64,000 bases of DNA from Candidatus Bathyarchaeia archaeon (GCA_049512075.1 JBEKXL010000001.1:160001-224000); one strand, 5' to 3'; shown: positions 926 to 52,536, counted from the first letter of the stretch. Program-made: numbers and translations. The notes: a model not told the origin generated them from the letters alone.

Positions 926-2320
926 GTGCCAACCTTGCAGCCTCCAAAACTTGAAAAGCAAGTAGGCATCGAAGTCTATGCTACCCGTTCAACAGGCATC
1001 GGCGGAACCATCCGCAAGAACGTTGAAGACTTTAACGTCGAGGAACTGCTAGTAGACGGCTCAAAAGCCCAGACAGAAACTTTAGAAAGCTGCACCGACC
1101 ACCACGTGCTGGGCTGTTCAACGGCCAAGAACCGTTACCTGTTATGCACCATGGTCAAACGGAACTGGGACACATTTGTAGCTGTCAAAAACATCGCCAA
1201 CCAGCTTGGTATAGGCTCAGAGCAAATTCAAATTGCAGGAATAAAAGACGCAAAGGCCCTAACCGCGCAACACATCACAATCGAAGACGCATCACCCGAA
1301 CAAGTGCAGAAAGCCCATGTTAAAGACATAGAAATCCGCCCACTGGGCTATTTGCACAACAAACTGTCGACATACTACCTCTTGGGCAACAGGTTCCACA
1401 TACGTATCAAAGCCGTGAACCACTCAAAACCCGTAATCAAGAAGAGAATTACGAAAACGGTTGAAGAACTCAAAGCAATCGGCGGGATTCCAAACTTCTT
1501 CGGGCACCAACGTTTCGGAACAATCCGCCCAATAACACACCTGGTCGGAAAAGCCATCATCAAAAAGGACCTGGAAAAGGCTGCAATGCTGTTCCTAGCC
1601 AGACCAAGCCCTTACGAGCACCCCTCATCACGACAGGCTCGCCAAGAATTGCAAGCAACGCAGGATTTCGAAAAAGCTATGAAAGAGTTCCCCAGTCAAC
1701 TACGCTACGAAAGATCAATGCTGAAACACTTGGTCAAACGCCCAGACGATTTTGCTGGCTCTTTCAGAACACTGCCCTTCAAACTGCAGGAACTGTTCAT
1801 CCAGGCCTACGAATCCTACTTGTTCAACAGGTTCCTAAGCAGAAGAATTACACAAGGGCTGCCGCTAAACATGGTTGAAGTCGGAGACTGGGTTGTAGCC
1901 ATAGAACACTCAGGACTACCCAGCCCTACCATATTCAAAACAGTCAACCTGGAAAAACGGTCGGAAATTAACAATTCGATGCGACATGGGAAGCTGAGAC
2001 TGGCAATTCCACTGGTTGGATTCAAACAGCATCCTTCACAAGGAGTTCAAGGAGAAATCGAAAAACGAATCCTAGAAGAGGAAGACGTTTCTCCCAGCGA
2101 ATTCCGCATACTCACGATGCCTGAAGTGAGCACCAAAGGAAGACTCCGAGCCGCCACGACTCCGATCAACAATTTCTCGACGGACGAGATCTCACCTGAC
2201 GCAAACAGACCACGTGGATTCGATATCGGAGTAACGTTCATGCTGTATCGCGGCTCGTACGCAACGATACTGCTGAGGGAAATCATGAAACCAAGAAACA
2301 TAATAAAAGAAGGATTCTGA
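926..2320 (+). CDS. truD: tRNA pseudouridine(13) synthase TruD
   Basis: EDFNVEE, AGIKDAKALTAQ, PNFFGHQRFG and GSYATILLREIMK motifs; start placed at GTG 926, just after the pth2 stop. Confidence 0.93.
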   Translation: MPTLQPPKLEKQVGIEVYATRSTGIGGTIRKNVEDFNVEELLVDGSKAQTETLESCTDHHVLGCSTAKNRYLLCTMVKRNWDTFVAVKNIANQLGIGSEQIQIAGIKDAKALTAQHITIEDASPEQVQKAHVKDIEIRPLGYLHNKLSTYYLLGNRFHIRIKAVNHSKPVIKKRITKTVEELKAIGGIPNFFGHQRFGTIRPITHLVGKAIIKKDLEKAAMLFLARPSPYEHPSSRQARQELQATQDFEKAMKEFPSQLRYERSMLKHLVKRPDDFAGSFRTLPFKLQELFIQAYESYLFNRFLSRRITQGLPLNMVEVGDWVVAIEHSGLPSPTIFKTVNLEKRSEINNSMRHGKLRLAIPLVGFKQHPSQGVQGEIEKRILEEEDVSPSEFRILTMPEVSTKGRLRAATTPINNFSTDEISPDANRPRGFDIGVTFMLYRGSYATILLREIMKPRNIIKEGF

Positions 2321-2534
2321 GGACTTACACCTTCTTCAACGCGCGCCTCTGAAATCTCGCTCGCAAAACGGTCACTTACATTTTTCCCTAAAAAACAAGC
2401 GACTCTCTACAAGCGGAGCACACGTAAGTTCCACAATCGTGGTCTGCATGTCCTGTCCGTGAAAGGAATTGACCACCAATATTCTAAAGCTTTATCGCTT
2501 AGCGACTCGTGAATAGTGGGCAAGATGACATGCC

Positions 2535-3542
2535 ATGGAAGCAGCTGAAGCCGCAAGAAATGCCCTTGAGTGTGTTCTAGAAGCAAAGAAGGGCGAAACC
2601 ATCATGATATTTTGTGACGATGAAAAGACGGATGTCTGCGAACCGTTTTCCATAGGCGCCCTGAGTCTCGGCCTGAAGACACGCTTGATCAAGCTGAAGA
2701 CCGAACCGACCTTACGGAAAGATATTCCTCTAGAGATCAAAGAAATCTTCACAAAACAAAGAACAGACATCTTCGTCAACCTGCTGCGCGGAAACCGAGA
2801 AGAAACAACTTTCAGGATAAAGCTCACCGAATTGGAAACCGAAGACCGCAAAGCACGCCTTGCCCACTGCCCAGGCATCACGCTGGACATGCTCACCGAC
2901 GGCGCCCTAGCTCTCACCATCAAAGATCACAGAGAAATGCAAGACTTCGCGAACAGTCTGATCCAACGGCTAGGACAAGCATCCCGTGTGGAAATAACAA
3001 ACTCGGCAGGCACGAACATTTCGATGAGCGTTGAAAGAAGACCCTTCTTCACGGACACTATGATAGATTGGAACAGATTAAGTTGGATGAACATGCCGAC
3101 TGGAGAGGTCACGGTCGCACCTGTAGAAGACTCGCTTGAGGGCGAACTGATCTGCGACATGGCGATAGGCGGAATAGGCCCAATAAAAGCGGCTGTAGGG
3201 ATCACAGCAAAGGGTGGGAAGGTGCAGAAAACCGAGTCCCAGGACGACCGAGTGCTGAGAAGTGTTGAAGAATCGTTAAAGACCGACAGCCGAGCAAAAA
3301 TTGTGGGCGAATTTGCTTTCGGAATAAACCCAAAAGCAAGATTTGTTGAAGAGTTTCTCGAGGCTGAAAAAATCCTTGGCACGGTGCACGTAGCCTTTGG
3401 CAACAATTCGGATATGCCTGGTGGAAGGAACCCGTCAAGCAACCATATGGACTTCCTCATATCAAAGCCTACGGTCAAAATCGTTAATTCGGACAACTCC
3501 GCTTTTGATGTACTTGTAAACGGAGTATTCAAGAGCCTGTAG
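2535..3542 (+). CDS. M29-family (thermophilic) aminopeptidase
   Basis: NMPTGEV, GEFAFGINP, EAEKILGTVHVAFG and SNHMD motifs. Confidence 0.85.
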   Translation: MEAAEAARNALECVLEAKKGETIMIFCDDEKTDVCEPFSIGALSLGLKTRLIKLKTEPTLRKDIPLEIKEIFTKQRTDIFVNLLRGNREETTFRIKLTELETEDRKARLAHCPGITLDMLTDGALALTIKDHREMQDFANSLIQRLGQASRVEITNSAGTNISMSVERRPFFTDTMIDWNRLSWMNMPTGEVTVAPVEDSLEGELICDMAIGGIGPIKAAVGITAKGGKVQKTESQDDRVLRSVEESLKTDSRAKIVGEFAFGINPKARFVEEFLEAEKILGTVHVAFGNNSDMPGGRNPSSNHMDFLISKPTVKIVNSDNSAFDVLVNGVFKSL

Positions 3543-9904: not shown

Positions 9905-10960
9905 CTAGAACAAGGCGTACGGATAGGATTGCCCGCTTGCGTGCAGTTTGCCCTTAATTGGGATTTCTTGTCCACACACCGGACAACGCATGTCCTTTGT
10001 CAGATTCCACCGCGTTATCATGAAATTATAACGCTTAATCAAGGTTTCATTACAGTTCGGACAGTAAGTGTTTTCGCACGCATGCCCGGGCACATTCCCG
10101 ATGTAAACATAGTTTAGACCCGCATCCTTTGCGGCAACGTATGCTTTCTCCAGAGTTTCAAGAGGAGTTGCGGGGATTGTGGTCAGCTGATAGTCTGGAT
10201 GGAAACGCAGTAAGTGGAACGGCGTATCCTTTCCAATGCCATCCCTGATCCAAACGGCAAGCTCCTTAATCCTTTCAATCGAATCTCCTGATTTGGGCAC
10301 GATGAGGTTCGTGATTTCTATGTGAATGGCGTTCCGCCTCATTTCCTTCAAAGCCTCAAAGATCGGCGCAACTGAAGGAACAGAAGAAAAAGTCTTGTAG
10401 AATTCCGGGTCTGCACCACCCTTGAAATCCACCGTCGCAGCGTCCAAGTATGGAGCTATCGTTTTCACCGCTTCTGGCGTCATGTAACCATTTGTTACAA
10501 AAGTGTTGAAGAATCCTACTTGGCGAGCGAGTTTGGCAGTGTCGTAGGCGTATTCGAAGAAAATGGTTGGTTCAGTGTACGTGTAGCTTATTCCCTCGCA
10601 GCCGTTGTCTCTGGCGGCTTTTATTACCTCTTCTGGAGGAAAATGTTTGCCACTCATCTTCTTCTCTTGGCTTATCATCCAGTTGTCACAGAACTGACAG
10701 CGGAAGTTGCAGCCAATCGTGGCAATGGACATCACAGAGGCCCCTGGGTTAAAGTGGGCAAGCGGCTTTTTCTCAACGGGATCTATAGCTGCAGATATTG
10801 CCTTGGCATAGTTGAGCGAAAAAAGAGTCCCCCCTTCGTTCTTTCTTACTAAGCAAAAGCCCGTACCGCCATCGTTTATGAGGCATTTTCGGGCGCACAG
10901 GTGACAGTTGACCTTTTTGTCCGGTAGTTTTTCGTAGAGCATTGCTTCGTGAAGCGACAT
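9905..10960 (-). CDS. amrS: AmmeMemoRadiSam system radical SAM enzyme
   Basis: DPVEKKPLAHF, CNFRCQFCDN, YTYTEP, RFHPDY and NTYCPNC motifs. Confidence 0.9.
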   Translation of the reverse strand: MSLHEAMLYEKLPDKKVNCHLCARKCLINDGGTGFCLVRKNEGGTLFSLNYAKAISAAIDPVEKKPLAHFNPGASVMSIATIGCNFRCQFCDNWMISQEKKMSGKHFPPEEVIKAARDNGCEGISYTYTEPTIFFEYAYDTAKLARQVGFFNTFVTNGYMTPEAVKTIAPYLDAATVDFKGGADPEFYKTFSSVPSVAPIFEALKEMRRNAIHIEITNLIVPKSGDSIERIKELAVWIRDGIGKDTPFHLLRFHPDYQLTTIPATPLETLEKAYVAAKDAGLNYVYIGNVPGHACENTYCPNCNETLIKRYNFMITRWNLTKDMRCPVCGQEIPIKGKLHASGQSYPYALF

Positions 10961-42685: not shown

Positions 42686-43065
42686 TAGGTCGTTCCTCTT
42701 CTCAACTGTTCAACTCTCGTGACAATCTCTTTTACCAATCCCGCGGCGTCTCCTTCTTTGACGATGCACGCCGCTCCAGCAGGAACGTCAATACCTATGG
42801 CACTGCCAATCTTTTCCTTGCTCGGAACGAATATGTAGGGAATTTTCCTCTCTTCACACAGCAAAGGCAAATGGGCAACGACTTCCGGTGGCTGTACATC
42901 TTCAGCTATCACCACAAGTTTGGCCTGAGCTCTTTCAATAGCCTTCGTCGTCTCATTCGTGCCTTTCCTAACTGCACCTGTCTTAGCGACTATTTGCAGG
43001 GCTTCATAGGCGGCATCTGCCAGCTCTTTTGAAACTTCAAACTTCACATAGAATGGCTTGGACAT
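42685..43065 (-). CDS. rpl7ae: 50S ribosomal protein L7Ae
   Basis: [12 protein letters not shown] and [20 protein letters not shown]. Confidence 0.97.
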
Positions 43066-43670
43066 AAGCCTCTCCCTTCAAATGCACAGTCTAATCAACA
43101 GTTCCTATTTAAGAAGGTTTCGACCCCAGTTAGCGGGCGCGCATGCGTATTCCTGAAACGGTTAAGAATGGTGTTTATTTCTTTTTCGCGGGGTTTGAGT
43201 ATAGGAAAACTCTTCGTGTAGGGTCTGCCCGAGCTCCCATGATATGCCATGCCTCAAAGCGGCCAAAATTTGCCTATCAAACAAGTCCATACCAGATGCT
43301 AACAAGCATGAGAAGAACATAAACCGTTTTACACAAACTCGAGAAAAAACATGCGCGTCACGGCACACTAAACCCGATAAAGCATATTTGGCTCCAAATA
43401 GAGGGGCCTACACCCGTTGCGCGCACACACAAAAACAACACGAAACAAGAACACTGCTCAGCCTCACTACACCTAAAAACCGAATTCAGGAACACACATG
43501 CACGCTACTAATTGTACAGAGAGACAACCCAAAGGAGCCAGAGCCAAAACCATAGCTTTGAAACCTCAAGCAGACTCCGAGCGCGCACGAAAACTTGAGG
43601 GGACAGCCTACTTCGGAAAAGAAGAAAAAGGAAAACCCTGACAACCCTTCATGCAGTGCCCGTTTTCCTT

Positions 43671-44513
43671 CTATACATTTTTCTTTGGCAAATAAACGGC
43701 ACAAAGCAGTCCGAAGTACGTGGGTACCTGATAAGATAACAGACGCCCAACCATTTCAGTGTGATTCAGAATGCCCTGCAATATGGCCAATTGCCAGAGG
43801 CTATCAGGCTTCGCATCTTCGACAAACTGCGGCGGTAAGCTAAGCAGCGGAACCAAATCATTCTTCAAAACAGCGTTCCTAACTTCTTCGTCATACTTCG
43901 CAGATGCCAAATGAAAGCCATACGGACCCTTAGCATCGTGAGCGTGACCTTGGTCAGCGCTTGCCACGAAAGCAATCTTCCTGCCTGAAGCCTCAGCGGC
44001 CTCGGCGACCACGCGTCCGAAACGCACAAGGCTCTGCAACGGAATTTCCCTTGAAGGCGTGACTATCACAACATTAGGCCCTGCCTGACCCTGCCCAACA
44101 AGAAACCATAGCGGTATCAGTGTACCCCAATCCATAGGCATACAAGAAGCTTCACCTTCGCTAGCACCATAGTTGACACCTACGACAGGAAGCGCAAGCT
44201 TCCTTGCGCTTTCCAGGATCTGCCTTGCCAGTTGTCGATCACATTTACAGCGAAGTCTAATCGTGTTGCCGTTGGCCTCCAACTTTCCCTCAGCAAACTC
44301 TGCAGTTACAACGCCTACAGTTCCCTCCAAACGCATATTATGCGGCGTGGCTAAAACAATCGTGTCAGGCTTATTCTGCTTCATCTCCTTCCCCAGCTGT
44401 TCCATCCCCCTGCGGGTCTCAGCAAAAGCTTCAAGCATGTCCCCAGCCAATTCTGGAATGGCCTCCGCTCCATGCGGTGCAATGCACGCAAAAACCACAC
44501 TCATCTTCGCCAT
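43671..44513 (-). CDS. LigB/MEMO-like extradiol dioxygenase subunit B family protein
   Basis: APHG, TPH, MDWGTLIPL, ASADQGH and YQVPTYFG motifs. Confidence 0.85.
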   Translation of the reverse strand: MAKMSVVFACIAPHGAEAIPELAGDMLEAFAETRRGMEQLGKEMKQNKPDTIVLATPHNMRLEGTVGVVTAEFAEGKLEANGNTIRLRCKCDRQLARQILESARKLALPVVGVNYGASEGEASCMPMDWGTLIPLWFLVGQGQAGPNVVIVTPSREIPLQSLVRFGRVVAEAAEASGRKIAFVASADQGHAHDAKGPYGFHLASAKYDEEVRNAVLKNDLVPLLSLPPQFVEDAKPDSLWQLAILQGILNHTEMVGRLLSYQVPTYFGLLCAVYLPKKNV

Positions 44514-44611
44514 CCACCACGGATATTGTCCACGAACCTCAAAGTAATAAACTAGTGGTATTCCGGTTCTGTTAACTCTTCGGGTCTTGCATGGATAAAT
44601 GTTTGTCCATG

Positions 44612-45301
44612 TTAACCAAAGGGGCTTTTCTGCGAAACTTCATCTATTTTTACAATAGACGATATGTCCATAGATCCATCGAGCATATGTACCCCAATTT
44701 GGTAGCAACGACTTACACTAGGATACTTCGGTTGAATCTGTCTAATGAGTTCGGCGATTTTTTGAGCATGATATAGACAACTATCGTCAACTCTAGTAAA
44801 CTCAGTAGATGGTCTGATTGTTTTGTTAAAATTAACTATGATGTCTTTAACCTCCTCTTCTTTTGCCTCGTATGGACAAATGGCTGCTACTTTATTCTCT
44901 TCCCATCTTGCTAGCCCATCTCCCAATGAGGGATGAACCACATCAAGTCTAAGCTTTGGGATTTCATTCAAAAGTGTTATGTAACTGTATATCCATCCTG
45001 TTAGCCCAATGTCGTCTTCAGTAATTGAAAAAAGAATCTTAGCAGACTTGAAGCGTTCTTCTTTAATTATCTCATAGATTTGGTCTGTGTTGGTAATAGT
45101 TTCTTTTTCAAGTCTAGTTTTCACGGCATTAAGCAAGTCAGTTCTTCCAGCTCCAGTAATCAATCCGCAACTCGTTTTTTGAATTTTCACGGAATTATCG
45201 GTATAACCTATTATTTGTTTTGCTTGATTGAAGAAAACAGTTCGCGTGTCCGCAGCCAGAAGAACATAGTTCCCAAAATTGATTCCTAATGCGATTGTCA
45301 T
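44612..45301 (-). CDS. Proteasome-beta/Ntn-hydrolase-like protein with N-terminal Thr
   Basis: M-T1-IALG...AAD17-T-R19, VKI and ITGAG match the proteasome-beta/HslV active-site pattern. Confidence 0.72.
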   Translation of the reverse strand: MTIALGINFGNYVLLAADTRTVFFNQAKQIIGYTDNSVKIQKTSCGLITGAGRTDLLNAVKTRLEKETITNTDQIYEIIKEERFKSAKILFSITEDDIGLTGWIYSYITLLNEIPKLRLDVVHPSLGDGLARWEENKVAAICPYEAKEEEVKDIIVNFNKTIRPSTEFTRVDDSCLYHAQKIAELIRQIQPKYPSVSRCYQIGVHMLDGSMDISSIVKIDEVSQKSPFG

Positions 45302-45534
45302 AGTATTCAGAAGAGTTCTAACACAGAGCTACTAAAAAACATAAATGAAAACACACGGTTCGAGCACGCATTTTTCTGATGGTGTGTGCAGGGTTCTGCT
45401 TATTTCGGCTGAAAATTTACCAAGAGCAAATAATGATATTAGCGAGCACTGTCTAAGCATGTTTGTTACTTTTATTAAGGTCGACCTATTCCAATCATAC
45501 GAAGTGCCTCCACCCGCATTTATGGTGACAGTAA

Positions 45535-45957
45535 ATGAATAGAAAATTGTTTAATCTTGCGAAAAGTTCTGCATTGGTTTTTGCTCTTGGTTTTCTTCCA
45601 GTTCCCTTCTTGATTCATGTGGGTTATGCTCCCTTGCTTGTCTGCAGTTTTTCTATGGCACTCATGCTTTTGTGGTCTGATGGACTGTTGACGTTATTTT
45701 CAATACGAAAAGGAGCTACCGAAATCAATCCCATCATAAACTTCCTAAACAACATAGCTGGAGAAAAAAGGGGAGTTTTGTTGTCTAGGGTTGTAGGTTC
45801 AATTTTTCCATTAGTCGGCTTGCTGGAAAGGAATCTCTATTTCACTTTGGCGATTTCGTGGGTGTTCGCTGCGGTGATTTTTCTAAATTCTGCAACTCTA
45901 CTCTCGGTACTTGCCGAAAATATAGATGCAAAACAGACCTACCACGCCAATGAATAG
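45535..45957 (+). CDS. Membrane protein, DUF5658-like
   Basis: About four TM segments; D.LLT....G..E.NP motif. Confidence 0.6.
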   Translation: MNRKLFNLAKSSALVFALGFLPVPFLIHVGYAPLLVCSFSMALMLLWSDGLLTLFSIRKGATEINPIINFLNNIAGEKRGVLLSRVVGSIFPLVGLLERNLYFTLAISWVFAAVIFLNSATLLSVLAENIDAKQTYHANE

Positions 45958-46083
45958 CAACCAATACTGAGGCGCTAAAAGCGATCCCACAGCGGAAGCA
46001 ACTATCCATATCGTCCCGATTGCAAAGCAAGCTATTAAAAACACTAGAGCTATGTTATGCCAGCTCACATCGTCCTCACTCAT
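45898..46083 (-). CDS. Small two-TM protein
   Basis: GAGGTGA RBS upstream; two hydrophobic helices; overlaps the convergent gene. Confidence 0.45.
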   Translation of the reverse strand: MSEDDVSWHNIALVFLIACFAIGTIWIVASAVGSLLAPQYWLLFIGVVGLFCIYIFGKYRE

Positions 46084-46541
46084 CTTGAACCTTCACCTCT
46101 CTCCAAATTGTTTCTTTTACTGGCTAAGAAAGGCTGGCAACGCTTCTAGCCCTCTGATCGGTCGCCCCTCAAAACACAAGTTTTAAATGTGCAATTATGC
46201 ACATTTCTACTTGCGAAATCTGAGAGAGTGGCGATGACCCTTTGGCTAGGAGAGTCACCCGCCTCGTTTATAGCCATTTTAACAGTAGTACAGCTTACAT
46301 ATTTAAGATTAACTGTAATCGCACTAGTATGACCAAAACGACGCGAGAATCCTTTGCATGTTGGTGAAACTTAGTGTGCATGATGATGCTGTACAACATG
46401 GTCAAAGGATTTTCGCTCATGCATGAAATCTGCTTCTCACTGGGAGTTAGAACTGTGTCGATTTTATTTTATTACAAAACGGCATAGACAGTTAACTATA
46501 TATTGCCGATGTTACAACACACTCTACAAGTGTGATTCACG

Positions 46542-46832
46542 TTGGAGAAGCCTCAAAAGATGAAGATTGTAAGTGTCAAGGAGATTCCTTTCAAGCTAAA
46601 GAAAAAGGGTGATGAGTGGTTACAACAGATTCTAAAGATACCTCCTGGCAAGGCTTGGGTACTTACAGAGGAAGAGGCGGGCATACAAGCTGCATCACTT
46701 AGAATGATGGTGGACAGACTGAAAAAGATTGGAGAACTATCAGATCATTACAAGCTAACACAACGTATGATTAAAGGCAAGGTTACGGTATACATCATTA
46801 ACACTGCAGAGGAAAAGACAGAGTTGGTATGA
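46542..46832 (+). CDS. Small basic hypothetical protein, possibly DNA-binding
   Basis: Lys-rich 96-aa ORF inside the transposon; TATA-like TAACTATATA upstream. Confidence 0.6.
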   Translation: MEKPQKMKIVSVKEIPFKLKKKGDEWLQQILKIPPGKAWVLTEEEAGIQAASLRMMVDRLKKIGELSDHYKLTQRMIKGKVTVYIINTAEEKTELV

Positions 46833-47090
46833 CATACAAAATTACAAGTTAAGAGTAGACGACCGATAACAGAGAACATGAACGCATACCGCAGGGTTAT
46901 GGCCACGGTGTTGGGCGTGCCCAATAGCACTAGCGGTATGGTATGCCAGCTATGGTGGCGGGCTGTTTCTGTTTCTCTGTCGGCATACGTCTGCCCTTAT
47001 TATAGAGTCTCTTCGTATAAAAGTTTATTCCTCGGTACATACTTCAGTATATGAGTGGGAATAGACGCCTGAATATACTTCAGCATACGC

Positions 47091-47255
47091 CTATTTGCCT
47101 TCACGTTCTACTATGAGCTTGCTCCCATCAATTCTAACAGTGATGATCTCGCCCACTTTAAAGGGAAAGTTACTGTCTTCGATTAGGTCTTTCTGCAAAT
47201 AGATTGTGTGCCTAGAACCAACTCTACTGATTTTTGTCTTCACTTGACGCACCAC
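47091..47255 (-). CDS. AbrB/MazE-like DNA-binding protein (54 aa, absent from the ORF track)
   Basis: VRQVKTKISRVGSRHTIYLQKDLIEDSNFPFKVGEIITVRIDGSKLIVEREGK; divergent from the transposase. Confidence 0.75.
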   Translation of the reverse strand: MVRQVKTKISRVGSRHTIYLQKDLIEDSNFPFKVGEIITVRIDGSKLIVEREGK

Positions 47256-47317
47256 TTTGAGCACCGTCGCATATACCTAAGTATGCAGACTTATTTAAAT
47301 CTTTATACACGTGAGTT

Positions 47318-47377
47318 TATACCACGGTGTAGAAACTGTTATATACTTGTGTGTACATTAGTATATACCACGGTGTA
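47318..47377. promoter_or_regulatory. Operator-like repeats between abrB-like gene and transposase
   Basis: TATACCACGGTGTA at 47318 and 47364; variant TATACTTGTGTGTA at 47342. Confidence 0.65.
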
Positions 47378-47382
47378 AACCG

Positions 47383-48553
47383 ATGAGAACCTCAAACACA
47401 CGCAAAATCCGTGCGTACTCTCTCCTAGCTCACGGAAAGGTTGACAAGATAAGCGATTTTGCTTATCGTGTCTGGTCTCAGACTGAGGAAGGCAAACACT
47501 ACATTGTTGTTAGGGAAGGGCTTGAGTGGAGATGCGAGTGTCCAGATTTTGTTTTCAATCATGTGGCTTGCAAGCACATTCATGCGGTTGAACAGATTAG
47601 GTTAAATGAGCAAGTCGCATTTCCTTCTGAGAAAGAGGGTGAGAACCTATGCAAAGAAGTGGAATCACCAGAGTCGGTTTGTAAATTCTGTGGCTCCGAG
47701 AACATCGTGAAGAGAGGGTACAGAAGCACTCAGAACGGAAAGGTTCAACGGTTCTTCTGCAACAACTGCAAAAGAAAATTGAATGAAGGCTACTCCTGAA
47801 ACAATCACGGTAGCTCTAGATCTGTACTTCAAAGGAATCAGTATGAGGGCAATCGTTGACCACATAAAGCAGTTTTATGGAGTAGAGGTTAGTCATGTGG
47901 CGATTTACAAGTGGATTCGCAAGTACGTTTCGATGATGAAGAAATATTGTGATCAGCTAGTTCCTAGAGTTAGCGGAATTTGGCACAGTGACGAAATGGC
48001 CTTGAACATAAAGGATTTGGACAATCACGACAGCTTGAGATGGGCTTGGAACGTGATCGACAACAAAAGTCGGTTCTGGCTTGCTAGTCAGATAACGGAG
48101 AAGAGGGAAATTGCTGACGCTAGGAAAGTGTTGGCTCAAGCCTCGACACTTTCGCAAACGAGACCTATGGCCGTTGTGACTGATGGATTGAGAGCTTATC
48201 AGGACGCGATACCCAAGGAGTTCTTCACTATGAAGGGGCCAAGGACTCAGCACGTTAGGATTCCGAACATTAGAGACAGGTCGAACAACAACATGGTTGA
48301 AAGACTTCACGGAACGATTAGGCAGAGGAACAAGGTTATGCGTGGACTAGATGATACGGAAACAGCACAGACAATGATGAATGGACTCAGAATCTACTAC
48401 AACTTCATGAGACCTCATATGGCACTAGATGGAAAAACTCCAGCACAAGAAGCAAGAATCGTCGATAGTTCAAAACCCGAGAATTGGCTCTCCCTAATCA
48501 AGAAGGCAAGTCAACACCAGATGTTTGAGGCACAGCCCAAGGACTCTCGCTAG
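47383..48553 (+). pseudogene. IS6-family DDE transposase with N-terminal SWIM and Zn-ribbon, split into two overlapping frames
   Basis: CECPDF..CKH (SWIM) and CKFC..CNNC in ORF1; HTH, WHSDE, VVTDG and NNMVERLHG in ORF2; frame change at ~47783-47799. Confidence 0.85.
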
Positions 48554-48568
48554 AAGCTCAAAAGTAGG

Positions 48569-49165
48569 TTATATAACTGTGATTTCGATACTACCAAATT
48601 TTGGATCTGAAGAAAGATGGGCGAAGCTTTTGTCTGCGGTTATTAGGCCATCTGCAAAAAACCCTAATGCGAGAAAAGCATGAACTAGGTCAATCCATCC
48701 TAAGCCCTTGTAGGTGTAATGTTCAAAAGAACCGTTACAAATTTGGCATCTGTAATACTTCTTGGCAATTCCGAAATAGTCCTTCGAGTAATCATAGACA
48801 TCTTTCATCATTTGTTTTAGATCGACTGGAGTAAAATCGCTAAAAAGAATTAGTCCCTGATCTTCCATTTGAGTAAGAACTTGTAGCAGGTCTTTGATTT
48901 TTGTGTCAGATTCTCCTTTTAGATATAAGTTCTGTGATATTGTGTCCAACAAATCAAGTTTTGACTTATCTGTTCTTTCAGTAACTCTGCGCCTAATGAC
49001 ATCTATAACCTCCATTAATGTTAGCATAGAAACCAACCCGATAATTTTCTTCTTCATTATGTCGTCTTCGATTATTCTCCTTGCATCATTGTAGAATCTG
49101 TCTGTTGGGCCTAACTGATATGACAATATAATTGAAGAGTCAAGATACTTGACTGGCAAAGTCAC
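48569..49165 (-). CDS. PIN-domain (VapC-like) nuclease with a CxxC insertion
   Basis: YLDSSII, LTLME, D.VH..A and LITAD.SF; CQIC insert. Confidence 0.85.
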   Translation of the reverse strand: MTLPVKYLDSSIILSYQLGPTDRFYNDARRIIEDDIMKKKIIGLVSMLTLMEVIDVIRRRVTERTDKSKLDLLDTISQNLYLKGESDTKIKDLLQVLTQMEDQGLILFSDFTPVDLKQMMKDVYDYSKDYFGIAKKYYRCQICNGSFEHYTYKGLGWIDLVHAFLALGFFADGLITADKSFAHLSSDPKFGSIEITVI

Positions 49166-49527
49166 GAGCGTTTCCTCAACGTCCTGACTAACTCTACTGC
49201 ATCTTTTTCATCAGAGTATTTTGAAAGAGAACCATCAAGCAAAGAAAGATCGACTCTCTCATCGGTTATTTCTGGCAAAGAGTATTCATCTCGAAGTTTC
49301 TTTGATAATGTCATGCTTTGTCTCGTTATCATATTACGAATGATCAACTTTTTTGCGGAAAAAGGTTGTTCTGCAGAATTTTCTTTCACGATAGGTCTTA
49401 TTTGAAGTTGGGTCGTGATTTCAGCCATAAAACCGCTATCTCTAAGAAAAGCCAAGAGTTCGGCCCATTTCTCGGGAAGCTGTTCTCTTTCGCTCTTTTT
49501 CTCAAACAGTTGACTGTAATTGGCCAT
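49162..49527 (-). CDS. Hypothetical protein, putative antitoxin
   Basis: Stop overlaps the PIN start (GTGA); C-terminal DAVELVRTLR resembles archaeal VapB-like tails. Confidence 0.6.
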   Translation of the reverse strand: MANYSQLFEKKSEREQLPEKWAELLAFLRDSGFMAEITTQLQIRPIVKENSAEQPFSAKKLIIRNMITRQSMTLSKKLRDEYSLPEITDERVDLSLLDGSLSKYSDEKDAVELVRTLRKRS

Positions 49528-49529
49528 GT

Positions 49530-50222
49530 TTAGCCCTTCAAGATGCTCAAGAACTCGTTACAGTCTTTAATTGAGTCTTGAACCAACTTAGCTAATTCAA
49601 TAGTCGCGGGGGAAGTCTTAAACTTTGTTATCAATTCGATTTTTAGAAGATTTTTCTCCATATCTTCAAGTATATCATAACTTTGTTTCTTGTCAGTAGA
49701 TTCTTGTGATACCATGATTTCCCGTAGTCCAAATGTAAATTCATTTCTTTGGCTCTTCAATTTCTTTACTAGGGGAAAGTCAATTTCACTAACGAGGTAT
49801 TCTTTTAGAGGAACTTCAAATCTAGCAGTCAATTTTACATTTGCGCTTTCAACGACTTTGGCACTTGCCCCTAGAAAGACACCGAGAAACAGATTGAAAT
49901 TTGATTGTGCCTCACGAAGAATTTCCTCTCGGGGAGGTTGCGCTTCTTTCTCTGGCGGGATTGATGTCTTATGAACCTTGAAGTCCATTTGAAGAGTGAT
50001 TTTCTTGGATGACACGAATATGTTGTATCCTCGACCTGATCTCAAGCCCTTCCTAGGCATTTCGTCAAGGGTTTCGCTTATTTCAATAGGTAACGAAAAT
50101 TCAGTCTTCATATCGCCTAATTTTATGTTGTCAATTGCTCTGTCAATTTTTTCCCATTCAGATTCGTATTTAGTGGTTATTTCCAAAATCAGAAAATTAG
50201 CATCTTCGTCTCTGAGCATCAT
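49530..50222 (-). CDS. Hypothetical alpha/beta protein, first gene of the PIN operon
   Basis: 230-aa ORF ending 2 nt before the next start. Confidence 0.7.
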   Translation of the reverse strand: MMLRDEDANFLILEITTKYESEWEKIDRAIDNIKLGDMKTEFSLPIEISETLDEMPRKGLRSGRGYNIFVSSKKITLQMDFKVHKTSIPPEKEAQPPREEILREAQSNFNLFLGVFLGASAKVVESANVKLTARFEVPLKEYLVSEIDFPLVKKLKSQRNEFTFGLREIMVSQESTDKKQSYDILEDMEKNLLKIELITKFKTSPATIELAKLVQDSIKDCNEFLSILKG

Positions 50223-50528
50223 GTAAACTCCAACATAGTTTCATTCTTCGCTTTCAGTATAAATCGTTTGTCTGTCGCAAAGAAACACTCTCATTCTAAT
50301 TTAGGGCAACATATATTCGTAACGGTAGAAAAAAGCCCCGCGGGTTAACAAACTTCTTTAAGACCCTAAGAGTTAACAGAACCGGTATTCCTAAAATGGG
50401 AAAAAATGGTCTCAAGCCCCTTCTTACATGTACAGGTTTGCCATGGATTTGTTTGATGAGCGTGTTGCCCAGGGAATAAAACCATTTTGCACCATTTTCG
50501 GAACACACATGCGCGCCCGAACCAAATG

Positions 50529-51281
50529 TTACATGTTCAGCACTCTGGTCAGTATGAAAGTCAGTATGAATATCAGTATGAATCCAGCGGTACACGTAAT
50601 TATTGTGAGTGTTACAGGATTCTTCTCATGCGCTGTTGGCAGGAGGTCACTCGCTCCTAGATATAGGAAACCGCCTGCAAAGAAAGGCAGAAGGAGCACT
50701 ATGTAATACGGCGGCAACTGAATAAAAAGTGTGACAACTGCCCCCAGAACTGGGGCAACTGCGTCCAAGAGCAGCATCCTCAAAGAATTTCGCAGTGAGT
50801 TGCCAGAATTCAGCATCACAGTGACCGTACTCAGCCCGTCAGTGAAGTCGTGGCATATGACTGCAAATGCAATTATGATGCCAACGTGAATATCAGCTTC
50901 AAGACCGAACCCAATTGCCAAGCCGTCTATGAAACTGTGAACTGAGAGTTCTGATGTTGCAAAGACTCCACCCAAAGGGTGCTTCACTTCAACGTATTCG
51001 CCATCTTGGCTGAAAACATGTTCATTTATCATTCTGGAAACGATGTAGAGGAAAAGGAATCCGACAACCGTAAGAGCCATCACGTCTTCAAGATCTACAC
51101 TGGCAGATTGGGCGAGCTTGAAAGTCTGTGGTAGTACATCAAGCAAGGAAGTTGTAATCAGTACACCAGCTGCAAAGGCTCCCAGAATTCCGATGTTCTT
51201 CCGATGTCGCGCTGCGAAAATCCCGCCGAACATTGTGGAAAAGCAAGTAATGACAGCCAAGAGAATTGCATCAAAGTTCAT
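50529..51281 (-). CDS. ZIP-family metal transporter
   Basis: HSFIDGLAIG, HDFTDG and AGGFLY motifs; multi-TM. Confidence 0.9.
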   Translation of the reverse strand: MNFDAILLAVITCFSTMFGGIFAARHRKNIGILGAFAAGVLITTSLLDVLPQTFKLAQSASVDLEDVMALTVVGFLFLYIVSRMINEHVFSQDGEYVEVKHPLGGVFATSELSVHSFIDGLAIGFGLEADIHVGIIIAFAVICHDFTDGLSTVTVMLNSGNSLRNSLRMLLLDAVAPVLGAVVTLFIQLPPYYIVLLLPFFAGGFLYLGASDLLPTAHEKNPVTLTIITCTAGFILIFILTFILTRVLNM

Positions 51282-51456
51282 ATGAGCATTAGGTTCTGAG
51301 ACTGAGCTACTTAACGGTTTTTGTGACCGAAGTATTTTCCACTCTTTAAGTTCTTGTACTATATGCAGAATAAACTTCCGAAGGCTCTATGTGTAATGTT
51401 TAAGGCTGTTCGCCTAGTGAAAGGAAAGATCAGCGCGCGCTGGATGAGCGGAGCCA

Positions 51457-52536
51457 CTAGCGTTTTCTTTTTCCTTGCATGTACTCTTCCACAGACTGTT
51501 TTGCCATGGAGTCTGGCACCTGGATGGGCGGATGCTTGAACGCATAGGAGGATATGCTGAGCAGCGGCCCGGCTATCTTGCGGTCCAGCGCTATCCTCAC
51601 TGCTCGTATTATGTCAATCACAACGCCTGCACTGTTAGGCGAGTCCTCAACCTCAAGCTTCACCATCACCGTCAACGGCCTGTCCCCGAACTTTCTTCCT
51701 TTCAACCACAGATAGCATACCTTCTTGTTCCCCAAGAAAGGCACGTAGTCCGAAGGCCCAATCCGCGTGGGCAAATCGTACGGCACGAGACTCGTAACCG
51801 CCTCCGTCTTGCTTATACGCTTTGTCTTCAAACGCTCCTCAACCGTCATGTTCAAGAAATCCGTGTCCCCGCCCAGATTCAACTGGTAAGTCTCGTCTAT
51901 AATCACGCCCCTATCGACGCAAAGCTTGGCCAATGCCCGATGCAATATCGTTGCGCCCAACTGACTCTTGATATCGTCGCCCGCAATCGGAAGCCCCTTT
52001 TCCTCAAACTTCTTGCCCCATCCGAAGTCTGAACCGATAAACTCCGGCATACAATTGATAAAAGCACAGCCAGAGTCCAATGCTGCCTGAGCATAGAACC
52101 GCGCTGCATCATGACTTCCAACCGGCAGATAGTTAACGAGAATCTCCGCCCTCGACTTCTTCAACACTTCAACAACATCCACCGGCTTGACTTCACCGTT
52201 CTTGTAAACGCTGAAGACTTCTTTCATGTGGTCAGCCACACCGTCAAGGACGGGGGCAGATGAAACCTTCACTCCCAGTTTCGGCACGTCCGCGAATTTG
52301 GCACAGCAGTTCGGCGCTGTGAATATGGCCTCAGACAAATCTTTTCCAATCTTGTTCTTGTTAACCTCAAAAGCCGCAACAAACTTCACGTCCCTAACGT
52401 GGTATCCGCCAAAATTAACATGCATCAAACCCGGCACCGTCACGTTCTCCCCAGCATCCTTGTAATACTGCACTCCTTGAACCAGCGCTGACGCCGAGTT
52501 TCCCACGCCTACGAGCGCCACTCGAATTTCTGGCAA
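51457..52536 (-). CDS. ino1: myo-inositol-1-phosphate synthase
   Basis: VGVGNSAS, NYLPVGS, GDDIKSQLGAT and DSPNSAG motifs. Confidence 0.95.
   Translation of the reverse strand: MPEIRVALVGVGNSASALVQGVQYYKDAGENVTVPGLMHVNFGGYHVRDVKFVAAFEVNKNKIGKDLSEAIFTAPNCCAKFADVPKLGVKVSSAPVLDGVADHMKEVFSVYKNGEVKPVDVVEVLKKSRAEILVNYLPVGSHDAARFYAQAALDSGCAFINCMPEFIGSDFGWGKKFEEKGLPIAGDDIKSQLGATILHRALAKLCVDRGVIIDETYQLNLGGDTDFLNMTVEERLKTKRISKTEAVTSLVPYDLPTRIGPSDYVPFLGNKKVCYLWLKGRKFGDRPLTVMVKLEVEDSPNSAGVVIDIIRAVRIALDRKIAGPLLSISSYAFKHPPIQVPDSMAKQSVEEYMQGKRKR

Follow-up and report, generated by a model that had tools for sequence, protein, structure and literature searches.

Insertion sequences of the IS6 family are the textbook case of elements that move other genes only as pairs. 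A review of the family describes their terminal inverted repeats as short, tipped with GG, and carrying a cTGTt motif, gives the duplication as 8 bp, and describes functional IS6 compound transposons as built from directly repeated IS copies. It also reports transposases that are 40-94% identical within the family, and two clades, h and i, of 1230-1760 bp with an N-terminal zinc-finger extension, clade h being drawn entirely from Clostridia. In the parts of that review that deal with passengers, ISDsp3 is the only IS6 member named with a passenger gene. For archaea, the relevant passage of a 2019 survey of integrated elements states that passenger-carrying transposons were not detected, and a 2025 preprint reports Tn7-type transposons.

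Here we analysed a window of 64,000 nucleotides (the whole stretch of DNA studied) from a Candidatus Bathyarchaeia archaeon. We are confident that window positions 44565-50383 (5819 bp; C1:204565-210383) are a unit transposon, or "transporter IS", of what appears to be a deep archaeal branch of IS6. One pair of inverted ends encloses the transposase and a variable cargo, which are moved as a unit. The features of the locus, in window coordinates, are as follows.

44557-44564, no strand: left copy of the 8-bp duplication (TSD), GGTATTCC; one copy (GGTGTTCC) at the G002/L060 empty site
44565-44588, plus: left terminal inverted repeat (TIR), GGTTCTGTTAACTCTTCGGGTCTT, from the sequence and end scans
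44610-44629, plus: left subterminal copy of the end motif, TGTTAAC-N4-GGGGCTTT, from an inverted-repeat scan; putative second transposase-binding site
44612-45301, minus: cargo, 229-aa proteasome beta/Anbu-like N-terminal-nucleophile hydrolase, from a family of 67 and a fold match
45535-45957, plus: cargo, 140-aa hydrophobic ORF, predicted from its sequence to be a membrane protein (ORF call)
46542-46832, plus: 96-aa ORF of cluster c1, found left of the transposase in 6/38 elements
47091-47264, minus: 57-aa small ORF of cluster c2, divergent from the transposase and conserved in position; putative AbrB/MazE-like DNA-binding regulator
47265-47382, no strand: divergent, operator-like control region with the motif TATACCACGGTGTA at 47318-47331 and 47364-47377 (repeat scan)
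47383-47799, plus: N-terminal piece of the transposase, 138 aa, SWIM zinc finger and Zn ribbon (PF04434, 25.3 bits)
47780-47781, plus: site of a 23-nt deletion that breaks the transposase frame, from DNA alignment with 7 intact relatives
47783-48553, plus: C-terminal piece of the transposase, 256 aa, HTH and IS6-like DDE catalytic domain (NF033587, PF13610)
48569-49165, minus: cargo, 198-aa PIN-like protein (PF01850), last gene of a three-gene operon
49162-49527, minus: cargo, 121-aa ORF with a 4-nt overlap with the PIN-like gene; candidate partner or antitoxin from gene order
49530-50222, minus: cargo, 230-aa ORF, first gene of the PIN-like operon (ORF call)
50331-50350, minus: right subterminal copy of the end motif, from the inverted-repeat scan and end-motif comparison
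50360-50383, minus: right terminal inverted repeat, top strand AAGACCCTAAGAGTTAACAGAACC, reverse complement GGTTCTGTTAACTCTTAGGGTCTT, from the sequence and end scans
50384-50391, no strand: right copy of the 8-bp duplication, GGTATTCC, from the sequence and the empty-site comparison

An earlier, sequence-only reading had described inverted ends each flanked by an 8-bp repeat, and both are seen directly in the sequence. The terminal inverted repeats span 24 bp, are 23/24 identical between the two ends, and both carry GGTTCTGTT with its GG tip and CTGTT motif. Inside this terminal pair lies a subterminal inverted pair (44610-44629 and 50331-50350; 85%). In a scan that tolerated up to 3 mismatches, the 16-nt end tip occurred exactly twice in the window, with 0 mismatches each time, a count that is not decisive alone, since at least 2 matches also occurred in 11 of 100 shuffles. 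Within C1:204565-210383, only the two outer ends were found at up to 6/24 mismatches, and hence no closer TIRs around the transposase, which that reading had named as evidence that would count against it. An Rfam search over 43000-51600 gave no match at E <= 0.1.

The sequence-only reading had also proposed looking in relatives for an empty site with one 8-mer joining the LigB-like and ZIP genes, and such a site is present in the same-genus genome G002 (locus L060), with the single 8-mer GGTGTTCC. The left flank aligned to positions 1501-2165 of this locus (95.3%) and the right flank to positions 2158-3150 (94.6%); the overlap is the one 8-mer, and precisely all 5819 bp of the element are missing. 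G002 thus has an empty site rather than cargo without TIRs, the other finding that would have spoken against a transposon. Because a same-genus genome has this uninterrupted junction with a single 8-mer, we conclude that the LigB-like/ZIP junction received a true insertion and that the 5.8-kb element is a genuine mobile element, inserted as one unit with its extra genes. Contigs of four sequencing runs contained no joint matching an empty-site allele and no informative joints; a joint of 44631 to 50358 in run contigs, with 27 letters on its short side, probably represents short end-to-end derivatives or other organisms.

As a separate observation, degraded relatives are present in the same genome, as are short derivatives that consist of ends only. 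A full-length distant transposase is located at C2:146624-147718, with family-type ends at 143295, 150744, and 151306 that lack a matching duplication.

The transposase gene of the window copy is single and central, as had been read from the sequence, except that the 23-nt deletion splits it into two overlapping ORFs in different frames. The 138-aa ORF1 scored 23.8 bits with NF050000, under the cutoff of that model, and aligns to residues 1-133 of fused homologues of ~390 aa. The 256-aa ORF2 matched NF033587 over positions 6-202 of its 202 positions (118.6 bits; cutoff 125) and PF13610 (DDE_Tnp_IS240) at 60.2 bits (cutoff 27). The deletion is not present in the seven intact relatives, and an identical junction was recovered, with 0 differences, in contigs of runs X1 and X5. 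With this frameshift, intact TIRs and an intact duplication do not imply that the copy is still active. Since its transposase gene is broken, the window copy is probably not autonomous, and it is most likely a single-copy resident that became immobile recently.

An affinity to IS6, also proposed in the earlier reading, is probable: the transposase matches the IS6 model above any other IS family, and the ends have the GG...CTGTT form with an 8-bp duplication. NF033587 was the top NCBIfam model, with full or near-full coverage, for all five proteins tested; four scored below the cutoff of 125 (118.6, 122.1, 122.7, and 93.6 bits) and one above it (138.0 bits; L046), the window protein and those nearest to it falling just short of this curated IS6 cutoff. 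Ten homologues share D211, D275, E314, and R321 (numbered as in P0005) without exception, and window ORF2 has all four; from the IS6 motif, we take the first three to be catalytic and R321 to be the K/R seven residues after the Glu. In a tblastn search against plasmids, all 325 records fell below 60% identity, and the best places in a listed sample of 25 of these records were 22-27% identical. With the exception of one generic DDE entry, every named feature under the listed matches was a transposase of the IS6 family, and the best listed match, on a Clostridium botulinum plasmid, aligned from residue 90 and included the Zn ribbon. Because identity to IS6 transposases on bacterial plasmids reaches only these values, sequence comparison indicates that the transposase represents a deep archaeal branch of IS6 and is not a close relative of IS26 or IS257.

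Like IS26, IS257/IS431, IS6100, and IS240, the family described here has a DDE transposase that best matches IS6, GG and CTGTT ends, and an 8-bp duplication. By contrast, known IS6 elements are 0.7-0.9 kb (at most 1.76 kb) with one gene, whereas family insertions range from 2108 to 8112 bp and the window element is 5819 bp; known IS6 elements move cargo only as directly repeated pairs, whereas here a single transposase lies inside the cargo. Unlike IS26 and IS257, these elements have two motif copies at each end and SWIM and Zn-ribbon N-terminal domains on the transposase, and 22-27% identity in the listed sample of 25 of 325 plasmid records places the family outside the 40-94% range of IS6 transposases. 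Clades h and i have in common with it a Zn-finger extension before the IS6 core, but those elements are <1.8 kb, whereas here the hosts are archaeal, a SWIM domain is added, and multi-gene mosaic cargo is the rule. Tn3 transposons have inverted ends, a single DDE transposase, internal passengers, and replicative cointegrate chemistry. However, their ends are ~38 bp, their duplications 5 bp, and their transposase ~1000 aa, and they encode their own resolvase, whereas the window element has 24-bp ends and an 8-bp duplication, its transposase is ~390 aa in intact homologues, and domain scans of the ORFs of the window and related elements revealed no resolvase domain. Tn7-like transposons are reportedly carriers of defence systems (Benler et al. 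2021) and resemble the family in having cargo rich in restriction-modification and other defence genes, but the TnsABC proteins, target selector, and site-specific targeting of Tn7 are unrelated to the one-protein IS6-type enzyme here. ISDsp3 is likewise an IS6 element with a passenger, but what the review names there is a single gene in a single element.

Cargo functions, in the window and in relatives alike, are read from HMM and fold matches. The "about eight passenger ORFs" noticed earlier amount to seven to eight non-transposase ORFs, but two of these (46542-46832 and 47091-47264) are probably element functions rather than cargo, because both recur in related elements. The first, the c1 ORF, had no Pfam match. 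Copies of the second, the c2 ORF, are 57-91% identical and occupy the same place in L037, L038, L039, L043, L044, and L086; its model (pLDDT 71.5) gave MazE, AbrB, Sso7c4, and VapB as top Foldseek rows, which were not significant (E >= 2.8), and we treat the AbrB/MazE-like fold as a lead only. The pattern TATAC-N4-GGTGTA is visible at the same two intergenic places in 7/7 c2-bearing elements, two of which (the window and L086) were flagged by an exact-repeat scan. The small upstream ORF and this repeated operator-like motif may have a regulatory role.

The 229-aa hydrolase has T2, D18, and K39 invariant across its family of 67, and its model (pLDDT 91.6) gave Anbu and 20S beta subunits as top Foldseek matches (E 2.5e-7, prob 1.0); its similarity to the proteasome-like cargo of L131 was not significant (E 0.012). 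The 198-aa PIN-like protein scored 22.2 bits with PF01850, under the cutoff of 23.6, and 4/10 homologues have a precomputed PF01850 match. Pfam, NCBIfam, and PADLOC gave no match for the 140-aa, 121-aa, or 230-aa ORF. PADLOC returned nothing on the window cargo except AbiLi (E 8.9e-4, with no qualifying stretch), and we do not claim the window cargo as a known defence system.

Related elements were sought in MAGs and metagenome contigs. At 40 of 97 related loci, an end pair has a perfect 8/8 duplication (39 in one scan, plus L051); removal of 3 re-samplings leaves 37 independent insertions, or 38 with the window. Nine further loci (L044, L069, L072, L089, L090, L096, L111, L116, and L141) have end pairs without matching duplication, which may be rearranged or mis-paired. 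The transposase family comprises 423 clusters at 50% identity (E <= 1e-30) and occurs in 41/301 sampled genomes of class Bathyarchaeia, representing 25/108 genera. The conserved core includes, besides the transposase, an upstream gene whose small product is a putative DNA-binding protein, and each end has two motifs that resemble binding sites. The family ends listed all begin with G, followed by G in most and A in several (GATTCTG). Terminal and subterminal motifs covary across subfamilies, and it is this visible covariation, not the ungapped score, that argues for bipartite ends: 12/74 ends reach an ungapped subterminal-motif score of at least 13/19, compared to 0.9% of shuffles, an excess that is modest because the spacer is one base longer in one motif copy than in the other. 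Each element has 2-10 non-transposase ORFs, and cargo across the family includes type II/IIG restriction-modification, methyltransferase-Mrr, Fic, PIN, Panacea, and proteasome-like genes. The window cargo fits this pattern, in which the modules carried are restriction-modification, toxin-antitoxin, and others of an addiction or defence type, and the variability of cargo between homologous ends suggests that it is dispensable.

It could be argued that a core-only element inserted and gained its cargo in situ, by nested insertion or recombination, and that the 5.8-kb unit never moved as such. The exact window element is single copy in its genome, and the arms vary from element to element in a mosaic fashion (L037, L039, and L088, for example, share the c6+c10 left arm but each have a different right arm), a pattern indicating that recombination between elements does occur. 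Yet none of the 69 loci that could reveal a compact form, each with a near-full transposase flanked by at least 400 bp to either side, has its left end within 400 bp of the transposase gene, the G002 site lacks the whole element precisely, and GC content is uniformly low across the element (0.37-0.46, versus ~0.45-0.54 outside). Moreover, L045 and L049 are near-identical loaded copies of 4035 and 4037 bp at two sites on one contig, with different duplications, showing that a loaded unit spreads as a whole. We consider in-situ gain of the entire cargo unlikely, while some of the window cargo may conceivably have been swapped in by recombination after insertion. Acting as a "non-composite gene carrier", as the earlier reading proposed, proves to hold throughout the lineage.

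Very unlikely, in our judgment, is an IS26-style pseudo-compound remnant, in which two IS once flanked the cargo and the outer ends and one displaced transposase survive. The movement of cargo by IS6 pairs described in the review and the degraded relatives and end-only derivatives in this genome would suit such an origin, but IS6 compounds are direct IS repeats, whereas here inverted ends surround a single central gene. Furthermore, tblastn detected no transposase remnant near either end or within the element, no internal ends were found, and the single-transposase layout recurs in the 37 other insertions, with the transposase never adjoining the left end. Least probable of all is an integrated plasmid- or virus-like element using an IS6-like DDE enzyme as integrase: two relatives have partition-type genes (ParA-like in L115; ParB_N-DUF488 in L052) and a viral-contig scan (IMG/VR) found partial copies on two contigs, but only these 2, both truncated and giving no evidence for a viral vector, while the ORFs scanned from 36 elements included no replication, capsid, or conjugation gene and the elements measure 2-8 kb, with ends and 8-bp duplications of the kind usual for transposons.

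For the unit transposon that we favour, we propose that the SWIM/Zn-ribbon/HTH/DDE transposase would recognise the two inverted ends, each presenting putative binding sites in the form of two copies of a ~19-bp motif, one terminal and one subterminal. The enzyme would link the GG tips to target DNA whose strands are cut 8 bp apart, and the element would be copied into the target via a cointegrate, a replicative pathway borrowed by analogy from IS26-type members of IS6. Host recombination would then resolve the cointegrate and leave the whole 5.8 kb flanked by an 8-bp duplication. In the window copy, the 23-nt deletion leaves the Zn-finger and DDE portions in separate pieces.

A literature search found no description of this archaeal cargo-bearing IS6-type family, in which a single IS6-type transposase is regularly accompanied by kilobases of exchangeable cargo, much of it of restriction-modification or toxin-antitoxin type. 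We regard as evenly balanced the broader proposal that these elements are an undescribed, widespread archaeal class of unit transposons built on an IS6-type enzyme, with their own small regulator and bipartite ends; that in Bathyarchaeia they are a main shuttle for modules of addiction or defence, among them restriction-modification and toxin-antitoxin systems; and that their insertions tend to fall exactly at the end tip of a relative already in place, giving arrays separated by one shared 8-mer. If true, insertion against resident ends would be an archaeal counterpart of the preference of IS26 for sites adjoining itself. A compact one-protein transposon with defined ends would also be a candidate genetic tool for archaea. 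The family would offer its hosts, the Bathyarchaeia, an archaeal class that is abundant and uncultured, a concrete vehicle for the flow of defence genes.

The window element proper occupies 44565-50383 (5819 bp), and its boundary features are as follows.

Boundary features of the window element
44557-44564, left 8-bp direct repeat, GGTATTCC
44565-44588, left 24-bp inverted end, GGTTCTGTTAACTCTTCGGGTCTT
44610-44629 and 50331-50350, subterminal inverted pair
50360-50383, right 24-bp inverted end, AAGACCCTAAGAGTTAACAGAACC
50384-50391, right 8-bp direct repeat, GGTATTCC

The 24-bp inverted ends are identical at 23 positions. The 16-nt tip occurs at two places in the window, both exact and both being the two ends; the search tolerated three mismatches, and at least two matches also arose in 11 of 100 shuffled sequences, so that this is a weak test alone. 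GC content is 0.37-0.46 within the element compared to roughly 0.45-0.54 in the surroundings.

The left flank was searched in 40 relatives and in the window's own genome, and matches were obtained in five of the relatives and in the window's own genome. In G002, a genome of the same genus, the left flank aligns to positions 1501-2165 of locus L060 (95.3% identity) and the right flank to positions 2158-3150 (94.6%), and the two alignments share exactly eight bases, GGTGTTCC. Thus, the LigB-like and ZIP genes are adjacent in G002 with one target copy, and the window has 5819 more bases and two target copies compared to this site. We conclude that L060 is the empty site of the window element, for which the sequence-only reading had proposed a search at this gene junction in relatives. 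In the likely source run, depth was about 97 across the element and 92 across the flanks, and no empty-site joint was present in the contigs of the four public runs examined, in which rare alleles are invisible. Just beyond the right duplication, at 50477-50516, is an intergenic repeat of about 40 bp (AAAACCATTTTNNACCATTTTMGGAACANGCATGCGCGC) with a reverse-oriented copy near 43140. This repeat occurs 19 times in the window's genome at up to 6 mismatches and is without an Rfam match; its contig depth is very high in other peat runs.

The transposase of the window element lies in two ORFs in different frames. In Pfam/NCBIfam searches, the N-terminal ORF (47383-47799) matched SWIM (25.3 bits) and, under cutoff at 23.8 bits, an IS1/IS1595-type Zn ribbon. 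The C-terminal ORF2 (47783-48553) matched DDE_Tnp_IS240 (60.2 bits), and its score against the IS6 model NF033587 was 118.6 bits (cutoff 125) over positions 6-202 of this 202-position model. A search with ORF2 returned 540 homologues, and those listed are mostly 380-392 aa with both parts fused. DNA alignment with seven intact relatives revealed that 23 nt are absent from the window between 47780 and 47781. The identical deletion junction, with zero differences, is present in a contig of public run X5, a run not marked as the source, implying that the deletion did not arise as an error in a single assembly. The one central transposase of the sequence-only reading is present, but it is split in two ORFs, and a frameshifting deletion has crippled the window copy. 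ORF2 keeps the catalytic residues, starts at a conserved Met and spans nearly the whole canonical IS6 core, and it may have residual activity, though the Zn-finger domains are now detached. A fused homologue, P0005, is 90-91% identical to the two pieces. No other complete transposase with more than 42% identity to P0005 is present in the window's genome, where a copy with 84% identity is cut off by the end of contig C17. Elsewhere in this genome, C2:143295-151306 contains a full-length but distant transposase of the family (42% identity to P0005) with family-type ends on both sides, 3 kb off, and mismatched flanking 8-mers; this locus may be rearranged.

The family survey covered 97 transposase loci, comprising the 17 best-matching of 22 fetched from species-representative genomes and 80 of 304 metagenome relatives. 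At 39 of the 97 loci, a search with consensus ends identified a pair that encloses the transposase and has a perfect 8/8 duplication, and one more perfect duplication (L051) was found under looser criteria. Three loci were re-samplings (L113 of the window's own locus, L105 of L037, and L071 of L038), and the independent insertions number 38 including the window, ranging from 2108 to 8112 bp; among those with a full-length transposase the minimum is 2424 bp. At nine other loci the end pairs are not flanked by a matching duplication, and at the remaining loci one or both ends are beyond the contig or undetected. Among the 38 elements, ORF calling showed a transposase split in two in 5 cases and a truncated one in 2 more.

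Compactness was tested at 69 loci where the transposase match is near-full and no less than 400 bp of sequence is available on each side. The right end was within 400 bp of the transposase gene at seven of these loci, the left end at none, and both ends at none, so that the plain IS form was not seen. Two elements of 4035 and 4037 bp (L045 and L049) are more than 97% identical and occupy separate sites on the same contig, where their duplications differ (TTGGATAG and TGTTTGGC); one of the copies has a split transposase. The different duplications of these near-identical loaded copies imply that the loaded unit spreads whole. The element is genuine, and its initial interpretation as a non-composite IS6-type gene carrier was right in substance.

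Family ends consist of the 24-bp tip and, about 33-46 bp inward at each end, an inner second copy of TG(T/G)TAAC-N4-5-GGGNCTT. Inner and outer copies covary across subfamilies in their variable part (GGCGCTT/GGCGCTT, GGGACTT/GGGACTT, and GGGAGAT/GGGAGAT), and this covariation suggests that each end has two putative sites at which the cognate transposase binds. At three loci (L038, L046, and L127), a second family-type end begins exactly 8 bp past a complete element's right end (L046:6019-6042 and 10174-10197, L038:14708-14731, and L127:3099-3122). The intervening 8 bp are the duplication of the complete element itself (TGATAAAG in L038 and L046, TGTATTTG in L127). On one side, L038 and L046 share their chromosomal flank (about 92% over 4.2 kb), and different elements occupy the same TGATAAAG. 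This arrangement suggests insertion targeted against resident ends.

ORF clustering resolved one constant part, the transposase (38/38 elements), and several recurrent parts. Directly upstream of the transposase in family elements is a small ORF, which in six of the 38, including the window (47091-47264), and also in L044, outside the 38, encodes a conserved 56-67-aa protein. From its sequence pattern and non-significant fold hits, this protein may resemble AbrB/MazE. Eleven other elements have unrelated ORFs of 46-61 aa (155 aa in L138) at the same place, which look like putative ribbon-helix-helix proteins on a sequence reading and one sub-threshold RHH_6 match. Between the upstream ORF and the transposase, TATAC-N4-GGTGTA is visible twice, at matching positions, in all seven elements examined, and an exact-repeat scan flagged it in two of these (the window and L086). 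A 96-108-aa ORF (window 46542-46832) is likewise recurrent in 6/38 elements. Hence, of the ORFs that had been read as passengers, those at 47091-47264 and 46542-46832 are conserved family parts recurring in other elements, but the others are variable cargo.

The window cargo includes a 229-aa ORF (44612-45301) that belongs to a family of 67 with invariant Thr2, Asp18 and Lys39, the pattern of proteasome-type threonine hydrolases. Its structural model (pLDDT 91.6) is similar in fold to Anbu and to 20S beta subunits (E 2.5e-7, probability 1.0, TM about 0.6). A second, unrelated proteasome-like gene is carried by another family element (L131:7818-8699; PF00227, 47.7 bits), without significant similarity to the window Anbu-like protein. 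Three overlapping minus-strand genes occupy 50222-48569, the last encoding a 198-aa PIN-like protein that scores just under the PF01850 cutoff and has PF01850 on record in 4 of 10 homologues; its 121-aa and 230-aa operon partners had no match. No window cargo matched PADLOC models.

Across the 38 elements, all parts beyond the core are variable and mosaic. One left arm (297- and 393-aa genes) recurs in L037, L039, and L088, each of which has a different right arm. Recognizable cargo is listed by locus.

Cargo of family elements
L038, L040, L086, L088: type IIG restriction-modification enzymes (PADLOC, up to 667 bits)
L050: type II pair
L039: methyltransferase-Mrr fusion
L085, L097: type I-like methylase and specificity subunits with Schlafen/AlbA_2 ATPase
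L093: Fic
L109, L110: DUF3800
L052: ParB_N-DUF488
L115: ParA-like ATPase
L106: ClpP-like protease
L131: proteasome-like protein
L043, L046: PIN
L042, L044: Panacea-domain proteins

Inside the L037 element, an extra right-type end lies 59 bp past the transposase stop (L037:11220; also L105:10220), and the duplication-matched right end is 643 bp beyond it. The extra end may be a trace of right-hand cargo capture.

Of the 301 genomes sampled from the class, 41 contain the transposase at E <= 1e-30; among those of high quality the figure is 26 of 152, and by genus it is 25 of 108. This threshold is reached by 423 clusters at 50% identity. By record titles, the hosts are Bathyarchaeia, with single distant matches in Thermoplasmata and others. 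The window's genome also contains two short non-autonomous derivatives, C5:9664-10712 (1049 bp), which retains only the last ~83 transposase codons, and C5:84296-85096 (801 bp), each with 8-bp flanks matching at 7/8 positions. Two IMG/VR contigs classed as viral (L145 and L146) have truncated transposase copies (86% identity) with one family end each.

NF033587 was the top-scoring IS model for all five proteins tested, with one relative at 138 bits, above cutoff, and the window's closest relatives at 122. In a tblastn search of 72,556 plasmids, 325 records matched, all below 60% identity and at 22-27% among the matches listed. The named features beneath these listed matches are IS6-family transposases, save one generic DDE entry. 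The alignment of the best match, a Clostridium plasmid copy, begins at residue 90 and thus includes the Zn ribbon. A review of the IS6 family (Varani et al., 2021; PMC7986276) gives sizes of 700-890 bp, with seven members of 1230-1460 bp that have a zinc-finger extension and three of 1710-1760 bp, describes GG tips with a cTGTt motif and 8-bp duplications, and mentions a passenger gene in a single member, ISDsp3. The present elements share enzyme type, tips and duplication with the IS6 family, but differ from it in size, gene content, and sequence distance. Krupovic et al. (2019; PMC6563490) stated that passenger-gene transposons were undetected in archaea, and a 2025 preprint reports archaeal Tn7-family elements. 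In the literature searched, neither a multi-kb IS6 element with a single transposase nor any IS6 element of Bathyarchaeia was found to be described. We conclude that the window element is a representative of a large family of IS6-type unit transposons that is apparently undescribed and carries exchangeable cargo, largely of defence or addiction type.
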